Origin: Candidatus Parcubacteria bacterium
GTDB taxonomy: Bacteria; Patescibacteriota; Patescibacteriia; UBA1558; GWA2-36-10
Length of the DNA stretch: 64,000 nucleotides
Assembly (NCBI GenBank): GCA_018669975.1
Contig: JABHSK010000001.1
Coordinates: 88,394-152,393 of the forward strand
Direction of reading: 5' to 3'
Part shown: positions 3,116-9,674 of the stretch, one piece after another
Layout of the letters: the number at the start of each line of letters is the position of its first letter
Position numbering within the stretch: position 1 is the stretch's first letter
Program-made: the position numbers and the translations under genes
The notes under the pieces: model-generated
The model's database searches: none
The model's input: only the letters and a program-made list of their open reading frames with translations
Told to the model about the DNA's origin: nothing

Positions 3116-3133
3116 TTTTATACAAAAAGAAAA

Positions 3134-3154
3134 AGGAGCTCATTACGAGCTCCT
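3134..3154. terminator. Bidirectional intrinsic terminator between convergent genes
   Basis: AGGAGCTC-ATTAC-GAGCTCCT flanked by A- and T-tracts. Confidence 0.7.
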
Positions 3155-3159
3155 GTTTT

Positions 3160-3738
3160 TTATTCTTCATCTTCTTGATAAATTTCGGGCTTGAGGATGC
3201 CAATCCCAGAAAGATTGCGCAATTGCTGAGCATAGTCCAGACCATAACCGACTACGAAGTCATCACCAATTTCAAAGCCGACATAATCGACTTTAACTTC
3301 TTTTTCACGAGCAGCTGGTTTATCCAGTAAAGTACAGATAGACAATGAGCGCGGCTTACGATCAGACAAAAATTCCTTGAGGTAAGCCAGGGTTAATCCG
3401 GTGTCGACAATGTCTTCAACAATCAGGACGTTGCGACCAGCGATATCGATGTCAATATCTTTCTCAATCTTAACCACACCAGAACTACTAGTAGTGTCAC
3501 CATAGCTAGACACGGCCATAAAGTGAACTTCCAACGGAAGATGCATCGTTCTAATTAAGTCAGCACAAAATACAAAGGCTCCCTTGAGGATGCAAATAAC
3601 CACTAGTGGGTATTCCTCCCCCTCATCTCGATACTCTAGACTAATTTGCTGACCAATCGCTTGGACCCTCCGCTGAATAACAGAATCCGATATAAGACTA
3701 CTTTTGACACTACTAAGCAGATCCAACCCTTTTTTCAT
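3160..3738 (-). CDS. hpt: Hypoxanthine phosphoribosyltransferase
   Basis: ILKGAFVF, VSSYG, VLIVEDIVDTGLTL (PRPP loop), FVVGYGLDY; SD AGGAG upstream. Confidence 0.95.
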   Translation of the reverse strand: MKKGLDLLSSVKSSLISDSVIQRRVQAIGQQISLEYRDEGEEYPLVVICILKGAFVFCADLIRTMHLPLEVHFMAVSSYGDTTSSSGVVKIEKDIDIDIAGRNVLIVEDIVDTGLTLAYLKEFLSDRKPRSLSICTLLDKPAAREKEVKVDYVGFEIGDDFVVGYGLDYAQQLRNLSGIGILKPEIYQEDEE

Positions 3739-3760
3739 GATTTAACTCCTTTTGAAGATG

Positions 3761-3816
3761 ATTTAATGTACGACGTGAATTTGAGTTAATTTAGTATATT
3801 TACTTGTTTTTGTCAA
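3761..3816 (-). promoter_or_regulatory. Sigma70-type promoter plus boxA-like leader motif for hpt
   Basis: TTGACA (3816-3811), 17 nt, TAAATT (3793-3788); GTACATTAAAT at 3771-3761. Confidence 0.6.
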
Positions 3817-3825
3817 AATAAAAAC

Positions 3826-3843
3826 CCCAAACCGAAGTTTGGG
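3826..3843 (-). terminator. Intrinsic terminator after the DsrD-like gene
   Basis: CCCAAAC/GTTTGGG stem followed by a T-tract on the minus strand. Confidence 0.6.
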
Positions 3844-3853
3844 ATGTAAATAC

Positions 3854-4087
3854 TTAATCACCAGCAATGGGTTCAGTGTGTGGAATTTCTACATAACTAC
3901 TGCCGTAGTAAGTATAAATCAGGCGCTCAGAATCGATACACAAACGCAAAGCCTGCTTGCAAATCTTTTTGTCCACACCAAAGTGTCCTTGAATAGCCTT
4001 CTTTAGTTCGGTTGGTTTCCATTTCTTGCTGCCCTGGTCTCTGGTAACCATTTTGACCATTGCATCGGCGACTTGTTCTGCTGTCAT
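3854..4087 (-). CDS. DsrD-like small winged-helix protein (dissimilatory sulfite reductase D family)
   Basis: ~77 aa basic protein with KKWKPTELKK...CKQALRLCIDSERLIYTYYGSSYVEIP, which parallels the DsrD pattern (L)V/I-D/N-x-x-x-L-x-Y-W/T-x-x-G-S-S/T; start at MTAEQ behind GGAAGGTG. Confidence 0.6.
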   Translation of the reverse strand: MTAEQVADAMVKMVTRDQGSKKWKPTELKKAIQGHFGVDKKICKQALRLCIDSERLIYTYYGSSYVEIPHTEPIAGD

Positions 4088-4117
4088 AGCATCACCTTCC
4101 ATTCCGGGTTTGAGTAA

Positions 4118-4173
4118 ATATAATGTACCAGACGAATTTAAATAAACTTATTATATTTACCTATTTTTGTCAA
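4118..4173 (-). promoter_or_regulatory. Sigma70-type promoter plus boxA-like leader motif for the DsrD-like gene; close copy of the hpt promoter
   Basis: TTGACA (4173-4168), 17 nt, TAAGTT (4150-4145); GTACATTATAT at 4128-4118. Confidence 0.6.
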
Positions 4174-4182
4174 AATAAAAAA

Positions 4183-4202
4183 GGTAGCTCCTAGGAGCTA
4201 CC
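4183..4202 (-). terminator. Perfect 20-bp palindrome terminating the five-gene operon
   Basis: GGTAGCTCCTAGGAGCTACC followed on the minus strand by TTTTTTATTTT. Confidence 0.7.
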
Positions 4203-4209
4203 CTATTCT

Positions 4210-5037
4210 TTACTGAAGTAAAGAACCGTGTCGAAAAGCAAATCTAAAGCCATAATTTTGCAAATCAGAAATAAAAACTCTAACCTTTTCTTCTGAAGCA
4301 TCAACTAAGCCGTGTTTGGCCAACTGTTGGTTATCATCTAAGAAATTTACCTTGATGAAAACCCTGTCTACGTCAAACAATTTGGCTAATAGAGATACAT
4401 CATAATTCATACTCTCCATGACTACGAAATTAAGTGTAACTCGATTCCCGGGCCAATGATTAGCAACTTCAGCGATTTCCGCTAAAGTCATCATTGGTAC
4501 CTGCGGACTGAGGAAATTCCGTTCTTCGTCAGAAGTGGTATGACAAGAAAATTGCAACCTTAGTTGTATACCTTGCTCGTGCAATTGCCTGAGCCTGACA
4601 AACAGCTTCGGATTTCTAGAACCAGACGTCGACACAACAAAGTGCAGAAAGGGCCAACGAGCATACATTTGCTCAATAGCTTGGCAGGTGTTATCAACAT
4701 TGAGACTGACATCCCCCATTTGCTTGAAGGAAATCTTTACCTCGTCATAACCTGGACTATCCAACGCAAAGTTGGCATGAACCAGTTCTACCTGATTAAC
4801 TATCTCAGCTACTGACAGCTGACGCCAATCTTTAAACTTTCTAGTAAAACAATAGATGCAGCCGATGCCACAGCCAGAGCAAACAGACACGCCAATTTTA
4901 CGAATCAACTTGCCGTCATTTACATCCTGCAGTGTTTTATCAGCTGATAAAACTAAGCTGTCGTCGGCGACGGCTCGGCTTTTATAGCCAGTACCGTCGC
5001 CGATGTCTCTTGTTTGTTTAAGAATCAGCACACTCAT
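4210..5037 (-). CDS. Radical SAM enzyme, RlmN/Cfr-like fold but lacking the methyl-transfer cysteines
   Basis: CGIGCIYC (CxxxCxxC), QMGD, VVSTSG and FSCHTTSDEERNFLSP align with RlmN motifs; no C-terminal AACGQL. Confidence 0.75.
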   Translation of the reverse strand: MSVLILKQTRDIGDGTGYKSRAVADDSLVLSADKTLQDVNDGKLIRKIGVSVCSGCGIGCIYCFTRKFKDWRQLSVAEIVNQVELVHANFALDSPGYDEVKISFKQMGDVSLNVDNTCQAIEQMYARWPFLHFVVSTSGSRNPKLFVRLRQLHEQGIQLRLQFSCHTTSDEERNFLSPQVPMMTLAEIAEVANHWPGNRVTLNFVVMESMNYDVSLLAKLFDVDRVFIKVNFLDDNQQLAKHGLVDASEEKVRVFISDLQNYGFRFAFRHGSLLQ

Positions 5038-5051
5038 GATGCATCCTCCTT

Positions 5052-6086
5052 TTATCCCCGCTCAATAGCAGACAGGATGTCCAGAGCCAACATCAATGTG
5101 TCTTCATCAAAACAAATATCATCACCGACCATTATGTGTCCATAGCCCATCTGCAACAGACATTGAATATCCATAATGTCCGAACAGGTCGGACGCGGAC
5201 TATGGCGCAGTGAAGTCAGAATACGGGAAGCCACAATGGCATCACTGTCCATTTCGGCAATTTTACGCAGTGGCCGTAGTATCTTATCCGGACGACCAAA
5301 CTCCACATACATATCACCACGAGCAGCCATCAAGCCGACACCTGGGAACTTGCGCAGGCACTTACATGCCCAATCAAAACCCTGAGGTGATTCAATCTTG
5401 GCTTTAATAACAGCCTTAGGATCGAGTGCCAACATTTCCTGAATATCACTGTCCTGCTCCACATAGGAAAGCATGAAAGTGTGAATACCCAGTTTAACTG
5501 CTGCTTCAATATAGCGGCGATCCAGTTCGGTGAAATAACCTTCGACCTCAAAACTAGGATGTATGATATTGATAGATTCTCCACCGCCGACGACCTTTTT
5601 TGGGCCTTCAAGCATAATCAGAGTATCACCATCAATCACGTCAACGATGTGAGCTGAGTCATAACCATCCTGGAACCAACACTTGACTGGTCCCTTGGAA
5701 GTATCCAGCTTGATCTTATGGTCAATCTTGAGCGTTGCCCAAGGTGGCGTCCTGAGGATACCATGAGCCTTGGGACGACTAGAATCAAGCACCACAACTT
5801 CATCTCCAAGCTGATAAGCCTTGGGAGGCCTATCAGAACCATTGAAGAAAAAACCGTGTGAAACCCGAACCTGTCGACACTTGAGATCAATCCACATATC
5901 CTTGTCACCGATTTGAGACTTGATAAGTTTGAGCATAGCCGTCAGTGCTTCGACTGAAGGTAAATCATCCTCCTTAACTCCTTGCACCGGCATAACGGTG
6001 TTGAGCCGAACTCCCGAAATAATCGGAAGTTCGGCCACCCTGCCAATGAAGGGAGCATAGGGAGGAATTGTGGTAATCACTTTCAT
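5052..6086 (-). CDS. Pyruvate-kinase-like protein (barrel and lid, no C-terminal regulatory domain)
   Basis: KVITTIPP, VRLN, IDLK, LSYVE, IKAKIES, LMAARGDMYVE and SRILTSLRHSPRPTCSDIMD parallel PK motifs. Confidence 0.75.
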   Translation of the reverse strand: MKVITTIPPYAPFIGRVAELPIISGVRLNTVMPVQGVKEDDLPSVEALTAMLKLIKSQIGDKDMWIDLKCRQVRVSHGFFFNGSDRPPKAYQLGDEVVVLDSSRPKAHGILRTPPWATLKIDHKIKLDTSKGPVKCWFQDGYDSAHIVDVIDGDTLIMLEGPKKVVGGGESINIIHPSFEVEGYFTELDRRYIEAAVKLGIHTFMLSYVEQDSDIQEMLALDPKAVIKAKIESPQGFDWACKCLRKFPGVGLMAARGDMYVEFGRPDKILRPLRKIAEMDSDAIVASRILTSLRHSPRPTCSDIMDIQCLLQMGYGHIMVGDDICFDEDTLMLALDILSAIERG

Positions 6087-6114
6087 GATCTTTACTCTCC
6101 TCTATGCCTGAAGT

Positions 6115-7146
6115 TTAGGTGAGTTTCCTGCTTTTGAGACTGGTCTTGCCGCCGGACTTCTTACCAACAGCCACTCCATCTGTGCCTCCACCCGCAGATT
6201 TATCCTTGACCGAACGCAGAGACGTCTTGACCCGACTGACACGATCCGGCCGGTCACTATGACGCTTACCAGAACGCAACTCAAAGTCTTCGTACTCGCC
6301 GGCTTCGCCAGCAACGATACCAATGATCATCTCGATGATGTCACGCGGCTTATCCAGGGTAATAACGTTGTCAGTTCCATAGATATCAGTCCAGAAACGA
6401 CGACAACTGGATGTCTTCTTGAACAGCACATAGACCTCAAACTTGTCAGCCAGTCTGCGTAGCACTTCCTTGGAGTTCAGGTTAGCCTGAACATCGTCAC
6501 CAATGTGCTCACGCACATGTGCGGCTTCCAGATTAGTACGTGTCTTGTCGTCCAAAATCCAAACAAAAAGTGGCTTGACGGCATTGGGCATTTCGCAGTG
6601 ATGCGTGAAATAGTAAGCGGCCAAATCATAGCTCTCGGGGCTATCACCGCCACCACCCTCGGGATAGAGCTTCTTAAGCTCACCATCAAGGGGCTTACCC
6701 TTCTTGAAATCCCTGACCTGGAGTGGGAAACTATCATATGCAGAATCCCCAACCAGAGAGAAACATATTTCTCCCTGAGGAATATATCGTTTGGCTTCGT
6801 TGCCCAGCAGGGGCAACTTTTCCAAAATAATACCAACCTCAGTCCTGAAAGATCCGGTGTGATCACAGCAAACCACCAAAGGATGACTACTATTGGTTGA
6901 GACCGCCAGCTTCTTACGCTTGATCGGAGACGGCGTCTTACCGCGAGCTGAAGTGAAGTCATGACTGGCTCGGCTACTACGCGCTGACGAGCGGGCAGTA
7001 GAACGACCAGTGGAACGACCTGAGCTCCGCGTCGGTGTTGTAGACTTCTTATATGCCTTGCGAGCTGAGCGGAAATCTTCTCCGCCACTACGACTGACTC
7101 CTCCAGAAGACGAACTTCCAGAATCATCTTCCCAGCTGTATCCCAT
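6115..7146 (-). CDS. vWA-domain protein with S/R/G-rich disordered N-terminus and basic tail
   Basis: VVCCDHTGSF (MIDAS-like DxTGS), VGD, EGGGGDSPESYDLA, LFVWILDD; start MGYSWED behind GGGAG. Confidence 0.75.
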   Translation of the reverse strand: MGYSWEDDSGSSSSGGVSRSGGEDFRSARKAYKKSTTPTRSSGRSTGRSTARSSARSSRASHDFTSARGKTPSPIKRKKLAVSTNSSHPLVVCCDHTGSFRTEVGIILEKLPLLGNEAKRYIPQGEICFSLVGDSAYDSFPLQVRDFKKGKPLDGELKKLYPEGGGGDSPESYDLAAYYFTHHCEMPNAVKPLFVWILDDKTRTNLEAAHVREHIGDDVQANLNSKEVLRRLADKFEVYVLFKKTSSCRRFWTDIYGTDNVITLDKPRDIIEMIIGIVAGEAGEYEDFELRSGKRHSDRPDRVSRVKTSLRSVKDKSAGGGTDGVAVGKKSGGKTSLKSRKLT

Positions 7147-7230
7147 GTCTTTCTCCCATCGGTTTAACTTGTGCACAATGCACGTGATAGTGAATATAAG
7201 TCTCCGCTATTACCTAAATCTATTAGAAAT

Positions 7231-8019
7231 TTAAGAAACCTTCAGAGTCTCTCCACTGGATCGACCACCAAACAACTCCTGGCGCAAATCCGACAAAGGT
7301 CGAATCAATTCCTGGGCTGTACTGGGACGATCAAGTGGATTACGTTTGATCATCTGACCGATGAATCGCTGCAACTTATCAGGAACAGAGTCCGGAAAAG
7401 TCATACCAATATAGTTACCACCAAGTGCATGAATCATACTTACTCCTAGACCGTAAATATCGGTCTCAGGAATAGGTGGTTTGCCAGCAACCTGTTCTGG
7501 AGCAGCAAAAGCCGGGGTGTAACCCTCAACTTTGGTGCGACTCCGAGGTTTAAGTGTAGCCAAACCATAATCAACCAGAATTGCATTATGTTCATCCGGT
7601 TTGATCATGATATTAGCCGGTTTGACATCACCATGAATAACCCCATAGTAGTGAAGATAATGCAGGGCATTGAGTAGCCGCTGAATCATCCAACACACTT
7701 GTTCGGGATCAATACCTTTCGGATAATCTTCATCAACGATCTTTTGCAGATCTTTACCTTCGATAAAAGTCATAATCATCACAAAACTACCATCATCTAA
7801 CTCGATAAAATCTCGTAGAGTCGGCAATGAGTGATGATGAACATGCCAGAGAAGTTTAGCTTCTTTCTTCAGAAGCTCAACATCTGCAACACTAAGATCT
7901 ATATTCTGTTTAATGCAAGCCATCTCGCCTAGAATTCGATGCCGAGCTAGATAAGTTCTAGCAAAACCACCTTCACCAATCTGCTTAAGCACCTTATAGT
8001 TTCCTATAATAGTAGCCAT
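7231..8019 (-). CDS. Hanks-type Ser/Thr protein kinase (catalytic domain only)
   Basis: IGEGGFARTYLA, CIKQ, IHGDVKPANIM, DYGLA, FAAPEQ, TDIYGLG; start MATII behind AAGGAGGT. Confidence 0.92.
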   Translation of the reverse strand: MATIIGNYKVLKQIGEGGFARTYLARHRILGEMACIKQNIDLSVADVELLKKEAKLLWHVHHHSLPTLRDFIELDDGSFVMIMTFIEGKDLQKIVDEDYPKGIDPEQVCWMIQRLLNALHYLHYYGVIHGDVKPANIMIKPDEHNAILVDYGLATLKPRSRTKVEGYTPAFAAPEQVAGKPPIPETDIYGLGVSMIHALGGNYIGMTFPDSVPDKLQRFIGQMIKRNPLDRPSTAQELIRPLSDLRQELFGGRSSGETLKVS

Positions 8020-8029
8020 TGTCACCTCC

Positions 8030-8761
8030 TTACTCTCCAGAGAAGAGTCTTTCTGCCAACCAACTTGGAAGATCGTGTTTGTAAATAGCATCAGCTGTTT
8101 TCTGAATATCATAAAAAACCCGTCGTAGGTCAAAATAAAATTGACCCTCACGAATTTCTATGACTGCATAGCAGGCTCGACAATCTCCATCACGGGGTTG
8201 TCCAACACTACCAACATTAATCAAAAACTTCTGCTCTCCTGCCAACAACATATCCTCAGTAATGTCCTTAATTAAACCCTCCTCGCTTCCAAAAATAAAT
8301 GGAATGTGAGTGTGTCCAACAAAACAAAGCTTCGTCTGAAAATGTGGAATTTCTTCCCGAGCTCTATCAGCTTCATCGATATAATCCCAGTGATCAGAAA
8401 AAGATCCGTGCGCTAGGGTTATATCAAGCTCTGGCAAAACTAGGTTGTAGGGCAATCTGGCAATAGCTGCTTTTTCCGCAACATTCAATTGCTGATCAGT
8501 AAACTGCACACCAGTCAAAGCGCTACCATTAAAATATTTTGCAGCAAAATCAAGATCAAGAAGACCCTCTTCGTGATTACCACGAATCATATCCGTAGCC
8601 ATTACACAGGCTGTTTCCCAGCAGGCTCGCGGTTGCGGGCCATAGCCGATAATATCACCTAAAAAATAAACTGCATCAATGCGCAGTTCTTTTAGATCAT
8701 ACCAAACAGCCTTGAGAGCTTCCCAATTACTGTGGACGTCTGACAAAACAGCTATCCTCAC
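8030..8761 (-). CDS. Calcineurin-like metallophosphoesterase
   Basis: SDVHSN, LGDIIGYG, RGNHE, AHGS, GHTH, NVGSVGQPRDG; GTG start behind AAGGAGGT. Confidence 0.92.
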   Translation of the reverse strand: MRIAVLSDVHSNWEALKAVWYDLKELRIDAVYFLGDIIGYGPQPRACWETACVMATDMIRGNHEEGLLDLDFAAKYFNGSALTGVQFTDQQLNVAEKAAIARLPYNLVLPELDITLAHGSFSDHWDYIDEADRAREEIPHFQTKLCFVGHTHIPFIFGSEEGLIKDITEDMLLAGEQKFLINVGSVGQPRDGDCRACYAVIEIREGQFYFDLRRVFYDIQKTADAIYKHDLPSWLAERLFSGE

Positions 8762-8802
8762 GTCTTACCTCCTTTTTTAAGCTTTTTTGACTTGTTTTCG
8801 AC

Positions 8803-8991
8803 TTGTCAAAGTACATTAATATCCCCTAAATTAAATACTTAAGAGAATGTAGTTTTTTACCATAAAAGCAGGTTAGCGTCAAGGAAGGTAAGTAAAATGC
8901 ATATCTTTGACTTTTTTTACTTAAACATGCTATTTTTATGCTGGAATATATGAGTAAGTCCCCTCATGTTCAACCCGCACTTTGAAAGGAG
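8803..8991. promoter_or_regulatory. Divergent promoter region with a boxA-like motif in each direction
   Basis: Minus strand: TTGACG (8882-8877) and GTACTTTGACAA (8814-8803). Plus strand: TTGACT (8907-8912), TGCTATTTT, and GCACTTTGAAA (8977-8987) abutting SD AGGAG. Confidence 0.55.
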
Positions 8992-8997
8992 AAAGAT

Positions 8998-9639
8998 ATG
9001 AATCAATGGATGGATAAGTTTAAGAAAATGGGTGCTCTCTGGATACACGATGAAAATCCTGAGCGACCACATGCTTTATTGACTTCAGGCAAACACTCCA
9101 ATGGATACTTTAATGGCAGTAAAGTCATAAAAAATCCTCGTGTTCTAGCTGAGGCCTGCCATGATCTCTTGCAGATCAGCCATGCTGCTCAATTTACACC
9201 ACGATCTGTGTTTGGATCAGCTATGGGTGCCGTGACGATTGCTCACGAGCTGGCCAGGCAAATGGGTATCGAACTTGGCTTTACCGAGCCTGTCGAGACC
9301 AGGGAACAACTAGACATTACCCGCAAACACATGGTCCTCAAACGCTTTAGTGTTGTTCAAAACGAAAAAGTGATTGTGGCTGAAGATGTTATGACTACAG
9401 GTGGTACTACCAGAAAGACTATCGAGACACTGACAAAAACGGGAGCTGATGTGCTCGGCTTTATCCTTGTTTTGGTAAACCGTTCTGGTCAAGAATCTCT
9501 TGACGGCCGACGCATCATTGCTTTAATCGACCATCCTATGCCTTTCTGGGAAGCAGAAGAGTGCCCATTGTGTGCTCAAGGCTCCGAAGCTATCCGCCCC
9601 AAAGGCAGAGAAAGCTGGCAGGAATTAACTGCTCAATAG
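8998..9639 (+). CDS. pyrE: Orotate phosphoribosyltransferase
   Basis: LLTSGKHSNGYFN, VAEDVMTTGGT (PRPP loop), C-terminal CPLC seen in short PyrE proteins. Confidence 0.85.
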   Translation: MNQWMDKFKKMGALWIHDENPERPHALLTSGKHSNGYFNGSKVIKNPRVLAEACHDLLQISHAAQFTPRSVFGSAMGAVTIAHELARQMGIELGFTEPVETREQLDITRKHMVLKRFSVVQNEKVIVAEDVMTTGGTTRKTIETLTKTGADVLGFILVLVNRSGQESLDGRRIIALIDHPMPFWEAEECPLCAQGSEAIRPKGRESWQELTAQ

Positions 9640-9646
9640 ACAACCG

Positions 9647-9674
9647 CACCCTACATTTTGTAGGGTGTTTTTTT
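9647..9674 (+). terminator. Intrinsic terminator after pyrE
   Basis: CACCCTACA-TTT-TGTAGGGTG followed by TTTTTTT. Confidence 0.8.

Follow-up and report, generated by a model that had tools for sequence, protein, structure and literature searches.

A rare, mobile Patescibacteria cassette that combines genes for a kinase-vWA pair with those for a shortened pyruvate kinase and an RlmN-derived radical SAM enzyme

What does an operon do that places a calcineurin-like phosphoesterase and a Ser/Thr kinase ahead of a von Willebrand factor A (vWA) protein, a pyruvate kinase (PK) without its C-terminal domain and a radical S-adenosylmethionine (SAM) enzyme derived from RlmN? This question is raised by five genes within a stretch of 64,000 nt from Candidatus Parcubacteria bacterium (assembly GCA_018669975.1, contig JABHSK010000001.1, positions 88,394 to 152,393), which we call the window and whose positions serve as coordinates throughout. 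We find that the five genes are a horizontally moving cassette, patchy and rare in its occurrence, and that this cassette is the Patescibacteria branch of a wider module of kinase, vWA protein and C-domain-less PK (mini-PK). Our best explanation of its function, put forward tentatively and given somewhat less than an even chance, is that the cassette may be a phosphorylation-switched enzyme module that makes a modified purine nucleotide and acts as an accessory of NAD and adenylate salvage.

A patchy cassette within a wider module

The five genes lie on the minus strand between 8761 and 4210 and are tightly packed, with intergenic gaps of 10, 84, 28 and 14 nt in gene order and a GGAG(G) Shine-Dalgarno (SD) sequence ahead of each. 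The starts of the kinase (8019) and vWA (7146) genes were set by SD sequences and homologs, passing over longer mechanical open reading frames (ORFs). An intrinsic-terminator-like hairpin of 10 pairs with a T tail (4181..4204, minus strand) lies 5 nt past the stop codon of the last gene, that of the radical SAM enzyme. Packing, SD sequences and terminator were all described in an initial annotation of this DNA; the single promoter that it also proposed is not established, as promoter-like sites are at chance level (17, vs 14.9 +/- 4.5 in shuffled sequence).

A PK-seeded scan returned 262 related stretches, and the counts of genome loci given here refer to the best 80 of these 262; a metagenome scan seeded with the radical SAM gene returned 30 loci, 19 of them strong. 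The vWA gene is present in 70 of the 80 genome loci (66 by ORF, 4 more by tblastn), while 4 of the loci without it carry a protein, c5, with vWA-type terminal arms, and in the remaining 6 the PK lies at the edge of its contig. Wherever upstream sequence is available, the mini-PK always adjoins a vWA protein or such an arm-bearing substitute. Kinase genes were found in 49 loci by ORF and in one more by tblastn, radical SAM genes in 13 (12 of the cassette family and 1 of a sister type) and the phosphoesterase in 6, all of them Patescibacteria cassettes. The initial annotation had treated the five genes as one unit, and the neighborhood check bears this out: the complete set occurs in fixed order in 5 of the 80 genome loci (L022, L024-L027) and in three metagenome loci (L107, L108 and L114; L110 and L111 are repeats of L025), which makes at least eight lineages or samples besides the window's own. 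The mini-PK is upstream of the radical SAM gene in 13 of 13 metagenome loci having upstream sequence, and the pairwise identities of the five genes co-vary over 9 complete loci (rho 0.31-0.70).

The cassette genes have a GC content of 0.42-0.51 (86th-98th percentile of the genome), compared with a mean of 0.37 for this 1.07-Mb genome (96% complete, 36.5% GC), and their site, between a PEGA gene and lexA (window 3116-9664), is an insertion hotspot: of 10 family relatives, 4 have nothing there and 6 have cargo of varying kinds. No close mini-PK homolog was found among 60 relatives, where 26 weak matches proved to be other PKs, and a search of 400 phylum genomes did not turn up the cassette radical SAM family, its single match being another RlmN-like subtype that retains a C-terminal cysteine. 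In a quick tree the Patescibacteria PKs, from several labelled groups, form one monophyletic clade (13 rows, support 99). Many rows of this tree titled 'Methanosarcinales' group with Woesearchaeota; similarly, one locus (L023, identical to L175) comes from a record titled Gammaproteobacteria, yet the same contig is in our class sample (G732) and the title is probably wrong. The sequencing runs that contain the window's locus are marine metagenomes; no RNA run was listed for it, which has no bearing on expression. An assembly artefact or pseudogene is rejected, since near-identical DNA spans the locus in four further runs and the radical SAM gene is under purifying selection, with a dN of 0.16 against a dS of 1.55 relative to L105.

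Beyond Patescibacteria, the wider module is found in Woesearchaeota, in Chloroflexota and in large phages. A sample of 400 genomes of the same class contained the vWA gene in 12 genomes, from which 14 loci were fetched: one phosphoesterase-kinase-vWA-PK, five kinase-vWA-PK, three vWA-PK-PurA-like with an AAA ATPase or kinase ahead, four with kinase, vWA and PurA-like genes and no PK, and one kinase-vWA-calcineurin-like. Overall, a PurA-like gene follows the PK or vWA gene in 7 same-class loci and also in phages. These architectures therefore reveal a last slot, after the mini-PK, that is taken interchangeably by a PurA-like purine ligase or a cassette-type radical SAM enzyme, an alternative that the initial annotation overlooked. 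Two loci (L179 and L181) have an AAA ATPase of 637-651 aa in the usual place of the kinase, ahead of vWA, mini-PK and PurA-like genes, which hints at an AAA-vWA remodelling variant. Among viruses, kinase-vWA-PK is found in two contigs, one of 485 kb, and 209 phage records match the vWA protein (200 are from mycobacteriophages); the two neighborhoods examined read kinase-vWA-PurA-like and vWA-PurA-like. The Woesearchaeotal version (L028-L033) combines a J-domain-like kinase, a long mini-PK, c5 with vWA arms and a radical SAM gene; L029 has two vWA proteins and c5, with the N-terminal arm on all, and L031 a c5 with two arm copies.

Two altered enzymes and a putative switch

The mini-PK gene (5052..6086, minus strand) encodes 344 aa that match the PK barrel family PF00224 above cut-off (48 bits) and have no match to the C-terminal allosteric domain PK_C (PF02887) in Pfam, in agreement with the barrel without an allosteric domain described initially. 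Its alignment to the canonical PKs of relatives (hhalign probability 98.9) ends at residue 313 of the 475 of canonical PK. Loss of this domain is not special in itself, because canonical-type short PKs exist in relatives (L008, L017); these and L020, from relatives of the same order, are canonical-type or divergent PKs of 335-357 aa without a C domain, and none is beside a vWA gene within the 1.5 kb covered. All 40 of the mini-PKs aligned share R27, N29, D67, R74, K230, E232, R256-G257-D258 and S287, which we take to be the ligands of phosphoenolpyruvate (PEP), Mg and K. In place of the nucleotide-side NFSH and SGE..K, presumably the ADP-side motifs of canonical PK, the mini-PKs have NTVMP-type and GDDIC-type residues that do not vary, and R288 is a further novelty. 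Judged from these alignments, the PEP/Mg site is kept and the acceptor side is rebuilt, and the mini-PK may use PEP to phosphorylate a nucleotide bound in the rebuilt pocket.

The radical SAM enzyme (4210..5037, minus strand; 275 aa, Radical_SAM 33 bits) is derived from RlmN. Its model (pLDDT 94.5) can be superposed on residues 77-347 of RlmN with Z 25.9 and a root mean square deviation of 2.6 over 253 residues; other folds score lower, including the pyruvate formate-lyase (PFL)-activating enzyme (Z 16), TYW1 (15) and viperin (14.8). C56, C60 and C63 of the CxxxCxxC motif are invariant (35/35), and the MG[D/E]P-type SAM motif and the beta-extension are present. The model starts at RlmN residue 77, leaving no N-terminal helical domain; the position equivalent to C118, the resolving cysteine, is G49 (G in 32 and C in 3 of 35); and the model stops at RlmN 346-347, short of C355, the methyl-carrying cysteine of E. 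coli RlmN, while family tails are without a methyl-carrying-cysteine motif. The initial annotation was thus correct in describing an RlmN-like enzyme with neither catalytic cysteine, and plain RlmN or Cfr is ruled out by these losses, together with a TIGR00048 score of 70 bits against a cut-off of 290. The window's genome has a separate intact RlmN with the C-terminal cysteine motif. By these sequence criteria RlmN-type methylation chemistry is lost. K47, K105, Q162, K229, D234 and R269 are invariant, K101 and R160 are present in 34 of 35 sequences, and the only conserved cysteine besides the triad is C165. By strand pattern most of these eight residues, C165 aside, face the barrel, which suggests a phosphorylated substrate. 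We propose that 5'-deoxyadenosyl-radical chemistry would act on a free phosphorylated purine nucleotide in this lysine/arginine-lined barrel, and that the enzyme would occupy the slot held by the PurA-like purine ligase in sister cassettes.

The cassette radical SAM family has few members: 18 clusters score above 260 bits, after which the scores fall to 189. A larger sister family, also without the C-terminal cysteine, includes 42 lytic-phage records, one with an intein-like insertion (P0209). Its loci include L045:3046-3870, from an archaeal NAD operon with the kinase-vWA-PK trio, and L145-L149; in the five phages examined, its surroundings are accessory regions of mixed content, with Ter genes next to it in one phage and tRNAs around it in another. 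The cassette-type vWA was found in 0 of these 5 phages, and the cassette radical SAM family in 0 of 4 vWA-bearing viral records and at 0 loci in IMG/VR, searches that had no positive control. A third RlmN-like subtype (L143:11683-12576), with no C118 equivalent and the C-terminal cysteine kept, adjoins flavin-oxidoreductase-like and isochorismatase-like genes.

The three genes ahead of these enzymes encode a putative switch, and alignments confirm that the kinase, metal ion-dependent adhesion site (MIDAS) and phosphoesterase motifs on which the initial annotation relied are intact. The stand-alone Hanks-type Ser/Thr kinase (7231..8019, minus strand; 262 aa, Pkinase 123 bits) has invariant K37, E53, D131, K133 and D150 in 44 of 44 sequences, and the catalytic Lys, alphaC Glu, HxD-K-N, DxG and PE motifs are present. 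It is a non-RD kinase (HGD) with no sensor or membrane domain, and the 44-sequence alignment stops with the kinase fold; archaeal and viral relatives have a longer N-terminus with a J-domain fusion, seen as a DnaJ match in a phage kinase. The phosphoesterase (8030..8761, minus strand; 243 aa, GTG start) matches PF12850 and PF00149 above cut-off (Metallophos_2 67 bits, cut-off 27) and has no PP2C match, so that the enzyme is indeed calcineurin-like. Its metal motifs DxH, GDxxxYG, GNH[E/D] and GHTH are invariant in 10 cassette orthologs. PPP-type metal motifs serve both phosphoprotein and nucleotide hydrolysis, and the nearest structures are 3RQZ (E 2e-56) and then 3QFM, which we take to be the Ap4A/ATP hydrolase SapH. 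The gene is immediately ahead of the kinase gene in 9 of 9 other aligned loci. The enzyme is likely the phosphatase of the switch and possibly a nucleotide hydrolase.

The vWA protein (6115..7146, minus strand; 343 aa) had no Pfam, NCBIfam or PADLOC family match, and a profile search for solved structures by sequence found none. It matches the phage family phrog_2971 (E 3e-24), and its assignment as an integrin beta-I-like protein comes from a model (pLDDT 82.5, with low-confidence arms at 1-60 and 320-343) that matches integrin beta I/vWA domains in Foldseek. In the MIDAS, D95, S99, D134 and E171 are invariant in 65 of 65 sequences and T97 and D199 in 64. As stated initially, the disordered N-terminal arm is rich in Ser, Thr and Arg (30 Ser/Thr and 18 Arg/Lys within 85 residues); in Patescibacteria cassettes it is longer and richer in Ser/Thr (mean fraction 0.30 vs 0.18). 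Three arm elements recur, a YxW at residues 3-5, a SARxxY at residues 27-32 and a KSxKL-type C-terminal tail, and two of them track the kinase. Kinase-less vWA proteins were taken from loci with at least 1.5 kb upstream, excluding 6 edge cases, and the absence of the kinase was confirmed by a six-frame check. The SARxxY-type motif is present in 43 of 47 kinase-bearing vs 1 of 11 kinase-less vWA proteins and the KSxKL-type tail in 35 of 47 vs 0 of 11, while YxW is kept regardless (45 of 47 and 9 of 11). In loci fetched later, SARxxY was found in 4 of 6 with a close kinase and 0 of 2 without. In the kinase-less vWA proteins of Chloroflexota (L065, L068, L081, L082, L086, L088, L089, L091, L092 and L097), a zinc ribbon end replaces the KSxKL tail. 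In 4 archaeal loci missing the vWA gene its arms are found on c5, and the arms are therefore portable tags.

We infer from these patterns that SARxxY and the C-terminal tail may serve the kinase and YxW another partner, most simply the PK. In the proposed mechanism, SARxxY and the KSxKL tail would be phosphorylated or bound by the kinase and dephosphorylated by the calcineurin-like enzyme, while the vWA protein would bind and gate the mini-PK through its N-terminal YxW arm and its MIDAS site. With a putative writer, a likely eraser and no membrane parts, this compact and soluble set of five proteins should be the version of the module that is simplest to reconstitute in vitro.

Possible functions of the cassette

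The link to NAD salvage comes from the gene neighborhoods of the wider module. NAD-type genes occur in 56 of the 80 genome loci: nicotinate phosphoribosyltransferase (NAPRTase) in 25, nicotinamidase in 19, ADP-ribosylglycohydrolase in 14 and NAD-kinase-like genes (our own label, with no Pfam match behind it) in 31, along with nucleotidyltransferase/Nudix genes, NadA and nucleoside hydrolase. NAPRTase was found in 4 of the 7 other cassette genomes as well as in the window's own. In the class sample, where it is found in 58 of 400 genomes, it occurs in 8 of 12 vWA-positive vs 50 of 388 vWA-negative genomes (odds ratio 13.5, p 4e-5, with kin counted as independent). The window's genome also contains, 73 kb from the cassette, a high-GC operon (L144, G000:C8:170329-181013; GC 0.47-0.60) of NrtR, PP2C, a 625-aa kinase, two genes without a Pfam match, Nudix, an unknown gene, NAPRTase, Prs and NadE. 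The vWA-like gene of this PP2C module has no homology to the cassette vWA gene by BLASTP, and a nucleotidyltransferase/NAD-kinase-like pair lies on another contig. The initial annotation had proposed a nucleotide-like metabolite; a nucleotide-type substrate fits this wider gene context, while the link to NAD salvage had been missed.

Several observations weigh against this explanation. None of the 12 loci (among the 80) with the cassette radical SAM family has an NAD gene beside it, and 3 of the 7 other cassette genomes (metagenome-assembled genomes of 0.7-0.8 Mb) have no NAPRTase match. None of the 12 vWA-positive genomes of the class sample is smaller than 1.0 Mb, and size may therefore account for part of the NAPRTase enrichment, which would vanish if fewer than about 90 of the vWA-negative genomes reach 1.0 Mb. 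The radical SAM gene is missing from L023 and L030 and the phosphoesterase from the archaeal versions, and both are therefore dispensable. The arm motif patterns were drawn by eye on the data on which they were then scored, and L182 and L184 have a close kinase yet lack the pattern. A single Chloroflexota clade supplies 8 of the 11 kinase-less vWA proteins, which therefore represent about three independent losses, not eleven. For the barrel-lining positions of the radical SAM enzyme, the basis is strand pattern and alignment rather than coordinates. Finally, no PF00224 gene other than the mini-PK was found in the window's genome, which fits plain glycolytic use.

This last point leads to the alternative that survives best, although we consider it unlikely: the mini-PK could be an ordinary ATP/GTP-regenerating PK in which the vWA protein and phosphorylation replace the allosteric domain, fueling ATP-costly NAD salvage or GTP use by PurA-like partners, while the radical SAM enzyme is co-inherited and has a separate target such as tRNA. 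The PEP/Mg residues are invariant as they would be in such an enzyme, the sole PK found stands alongside enolase and a PEP synthase/pyruvate phosphate dikinase-type gene, C-domain-less PKs occur otherwise (the short PKs of relatives and the 321-aa PK of PDB 8IW2), and a sister radical SAM gene lies among tRNA genes in one phage. However, the ADP-side residues are swapped for new invariant ones, and 3 of the 5 other cassette genomes that were tested have a full canonical PK as well, which weakens replacement of a missing PK as the sole reason for the mini-PK. An unrelated radical SAM enzyme is difficult to reconcile with the mini-PK lying upstream of it in every informative locus (13 of 13), and an RNA target with the missing RlmN N-terminal domain and the intact RlmN kept by the genome.

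A role in anti-phage or stress defence, in which a switch like that of TerY-P would control a viperin-like output (an inhibitory nucleotide) or the restoration of NAD after attack, appears improbable. It would account for a patchy, hotspot-borne cassette next to lexA and for the related modules and sister radical SAM family of lytic phages, and the basic invariant residues of the radical SAM enzyme resemble what we take to be the triphosphate site of viperin. TerY-P-like triads also act as stand-alone defence, according to PMC11090510. Against this role, and against a known defence system, PADLOC returned matches to the generic kinase fold only; no defence island was noted near the other loci, most of which are in housekeeping-type NAD operons; and the fold of the radical SAM enzyme is closer to RlmN (Z 25.9) than to viperin (about 14.8).

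Lower still we place the possibility that the radical SAM enzyme modifies a cassette protein, with the YxW arm as a RiPP-like substrate, or uses the pyruvate of the mini-PK as a co-substrate on an invariant lysine, as in TYW1. The arm moves between the vWA protein and c5 mainly in loci with a radical SAM gene, most of these loci start with M-[G/S/A]-Y-x-W instead of M-Y-x-W (read by eye), and the PFL-activating enzyme and TYW1 come next after RlmN/Cfr in the fold list. On the other side, YxW is kept in many loci without a radical SAM gene, the difference in N-terminal start tracks clades, and no auxiliary-cluster cysteines are conserved, with only C165 beyond the triad. It is very improbable that the calcineurin-like protein is instead a dinucleotide or ADP-ribose hydrolase that feeds the mini-PK with no reversible switch: 3QFM is its second-closest structure and its gene holds the position of a nucleotidyltransferase-like gene in NAD-operon versions, but it lies directly ahead of the kinase in all 9 other aligned loci, an unrelated PP2C takes the same place in the genome's second kinase module (L144), and in L182 a separate second calcineurin-like gene stands behind kinase and vWA.

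We therefore retain the purine nucleotide module as our tentative explanation. A more far-reaching form, an undescribed class of phosphorylation-gated nucleotide factory in which a vWA scaffold with a portable docking arm joins a PEP-driven kinase of new specificity to swappable purine enzymes (a PurA-like ligase or a cysteine-less RlmN derivative), is in our view unlikely. In that form, the product would be a new modified purine nucleotide employed in NAD-centred conflict by large phages, DPANN archaea and bacteria living as symbionts, and no earlier RlmN offshoot would be known to work, as this radical SAM family would, on a free nucleotide without methyl transfer. If the tentative explanation is right, the cassette would offer joint tests of three questions: which substrate the widespread mini-PK phosphorylates in symbionts and jumbo phages, what becomes of RlmN-derived enzymes after loss of the methyl-carrying cysteine (a sister family is common in lytic phages), and how kinase-vWA switches govern NAD and purine metabolism.

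Flanking genes and known systems

The initial annotation had pointed to two phosphoribosyltransferase genes, hpt and pyrE, that flank the locus. Neither is next to any of the 80 genome loci. At the PEGA-lexA site, hpt is present without the cassette in 3 of 10 family relatives and pyrE in 0, and of 8 metagenome loci checked hpt is found only at L105, from a close relative and at the same chromosomal site. Both genes are thus ruled out as cassette members and are mere neighbors at the hotspot. Of the earlier interpretation as a whole, the co-occurring unit, the absence of a named system and the connection of arm and kinase hold, while membership of hpt and pyrE is not supported; its proposed role in conflict or host manipulation is at most a candidate, for which PADLOC gave generic kinase matches only. 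Between the operon and hpt lies an 82-aa ORF (3854-4102, minus strand) with its own promoter-like and terminator-like sites; it had no family match and is missing at the same site in L105, and it may resemble a DsrD-type winged-helix protein. A 64-nt direct repeat (3761-3824 and 4118-4181; 81% identity, spaced 357 nt) stands upstream of hpt and of this ORF and contains a TTGACA promoter-like site, suggesting that one promoter was duplicated or reused at the hotspot.

How does the cassette compare with known systems? As was noted initially, the combination is not a named one: PADLOC gave no match beyond the generic kinase, and no paper on the module was found in the full-text literature, where supplements were not covered and a mention in a table is possible. 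The text covered of a survey of jumbo phages (PMC7824862) has 0 occurrences of pyruvate kinase, adenylosuccinate and radical SAM, that of the NrtR paper (PMC2330246) has 0 of vWA, pyruvate kinase, protein kinase and adenylosuccinate, and that of a review of the PEP node (PMC8100219) has nothing on PK without the C domain. The operons under NrtR for NAD salvage resemble the sister loci, which mostly lie among pncA, pncB, nadM/Nudix and NAD-kinase-like genes; the cassette, in contrast, stands alone, with no NrtR gene seen beside it. Cluster C mycobacteriophages (for example LinStu gp257, gp258 and gp260) have a kinase gene, then that of a homologous vWA protein (30% identity) and then that of an enzyme of purine nucleotides, but this last is a PurA-like ligase in place of mini-PK and radical SAM enzyme, and there is no phosphatase.

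At the level of single enzymes, canonical PK (EC 2.7.1.40; PF00224 and PF02887) shares the barrel, the lid and all PEP/Mg/K residues with the mini-PK, which differs in lacking the C domain and in its family-specific nucleotide-side motifs. The class A radical SAM RNA methyltransferases RlmN and Cfr (PDB 5HR6, 3RF9, 6FZ6) share fold, CxxxCxxC, SAM motif and beta-extension with the cassette enzyme, which spans RlmN 77-347 only and has new invariant lysines. Viperin, a ddhNTP synthase, is more distant in fold, with no viperin family match for the cassette enzyme and Z 14.8.

The closest parallel in overall design is the TerY-P triad, described as a TerY-like vWA protein, a PP2C and a Ser/Thr kinase with a zinc ribbon or OB fold (PMC11090510, citing Anantharaman 2012 and Gao 2020). 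Both have phosphatase, kinase and vWA genes in one operon, are mobile and are proposed to act as phosphorylation switches. However, the cassette has a calcineurin-like enzyme and no PP2C match, its 262-aa kinase has no C-terminal zinc ribbon or OB fold, and its vWA protein, with fold and MIDAS present, has long arms and no Pfam vWA match. Two dedicated enzymes follow, and the link is to NAD salvage, not to tellurite or restriction loci. By these sequence features the build is TerY-P-like with two defining features of TerY-P missing. To the core trio this locus adds the phosphoesterase and the radical SAM family, along with a last slot that can be exchanged and an arm that is portable; the cassette is an undescribed, rare form of triad-type switch whose payload consists of enzymes.

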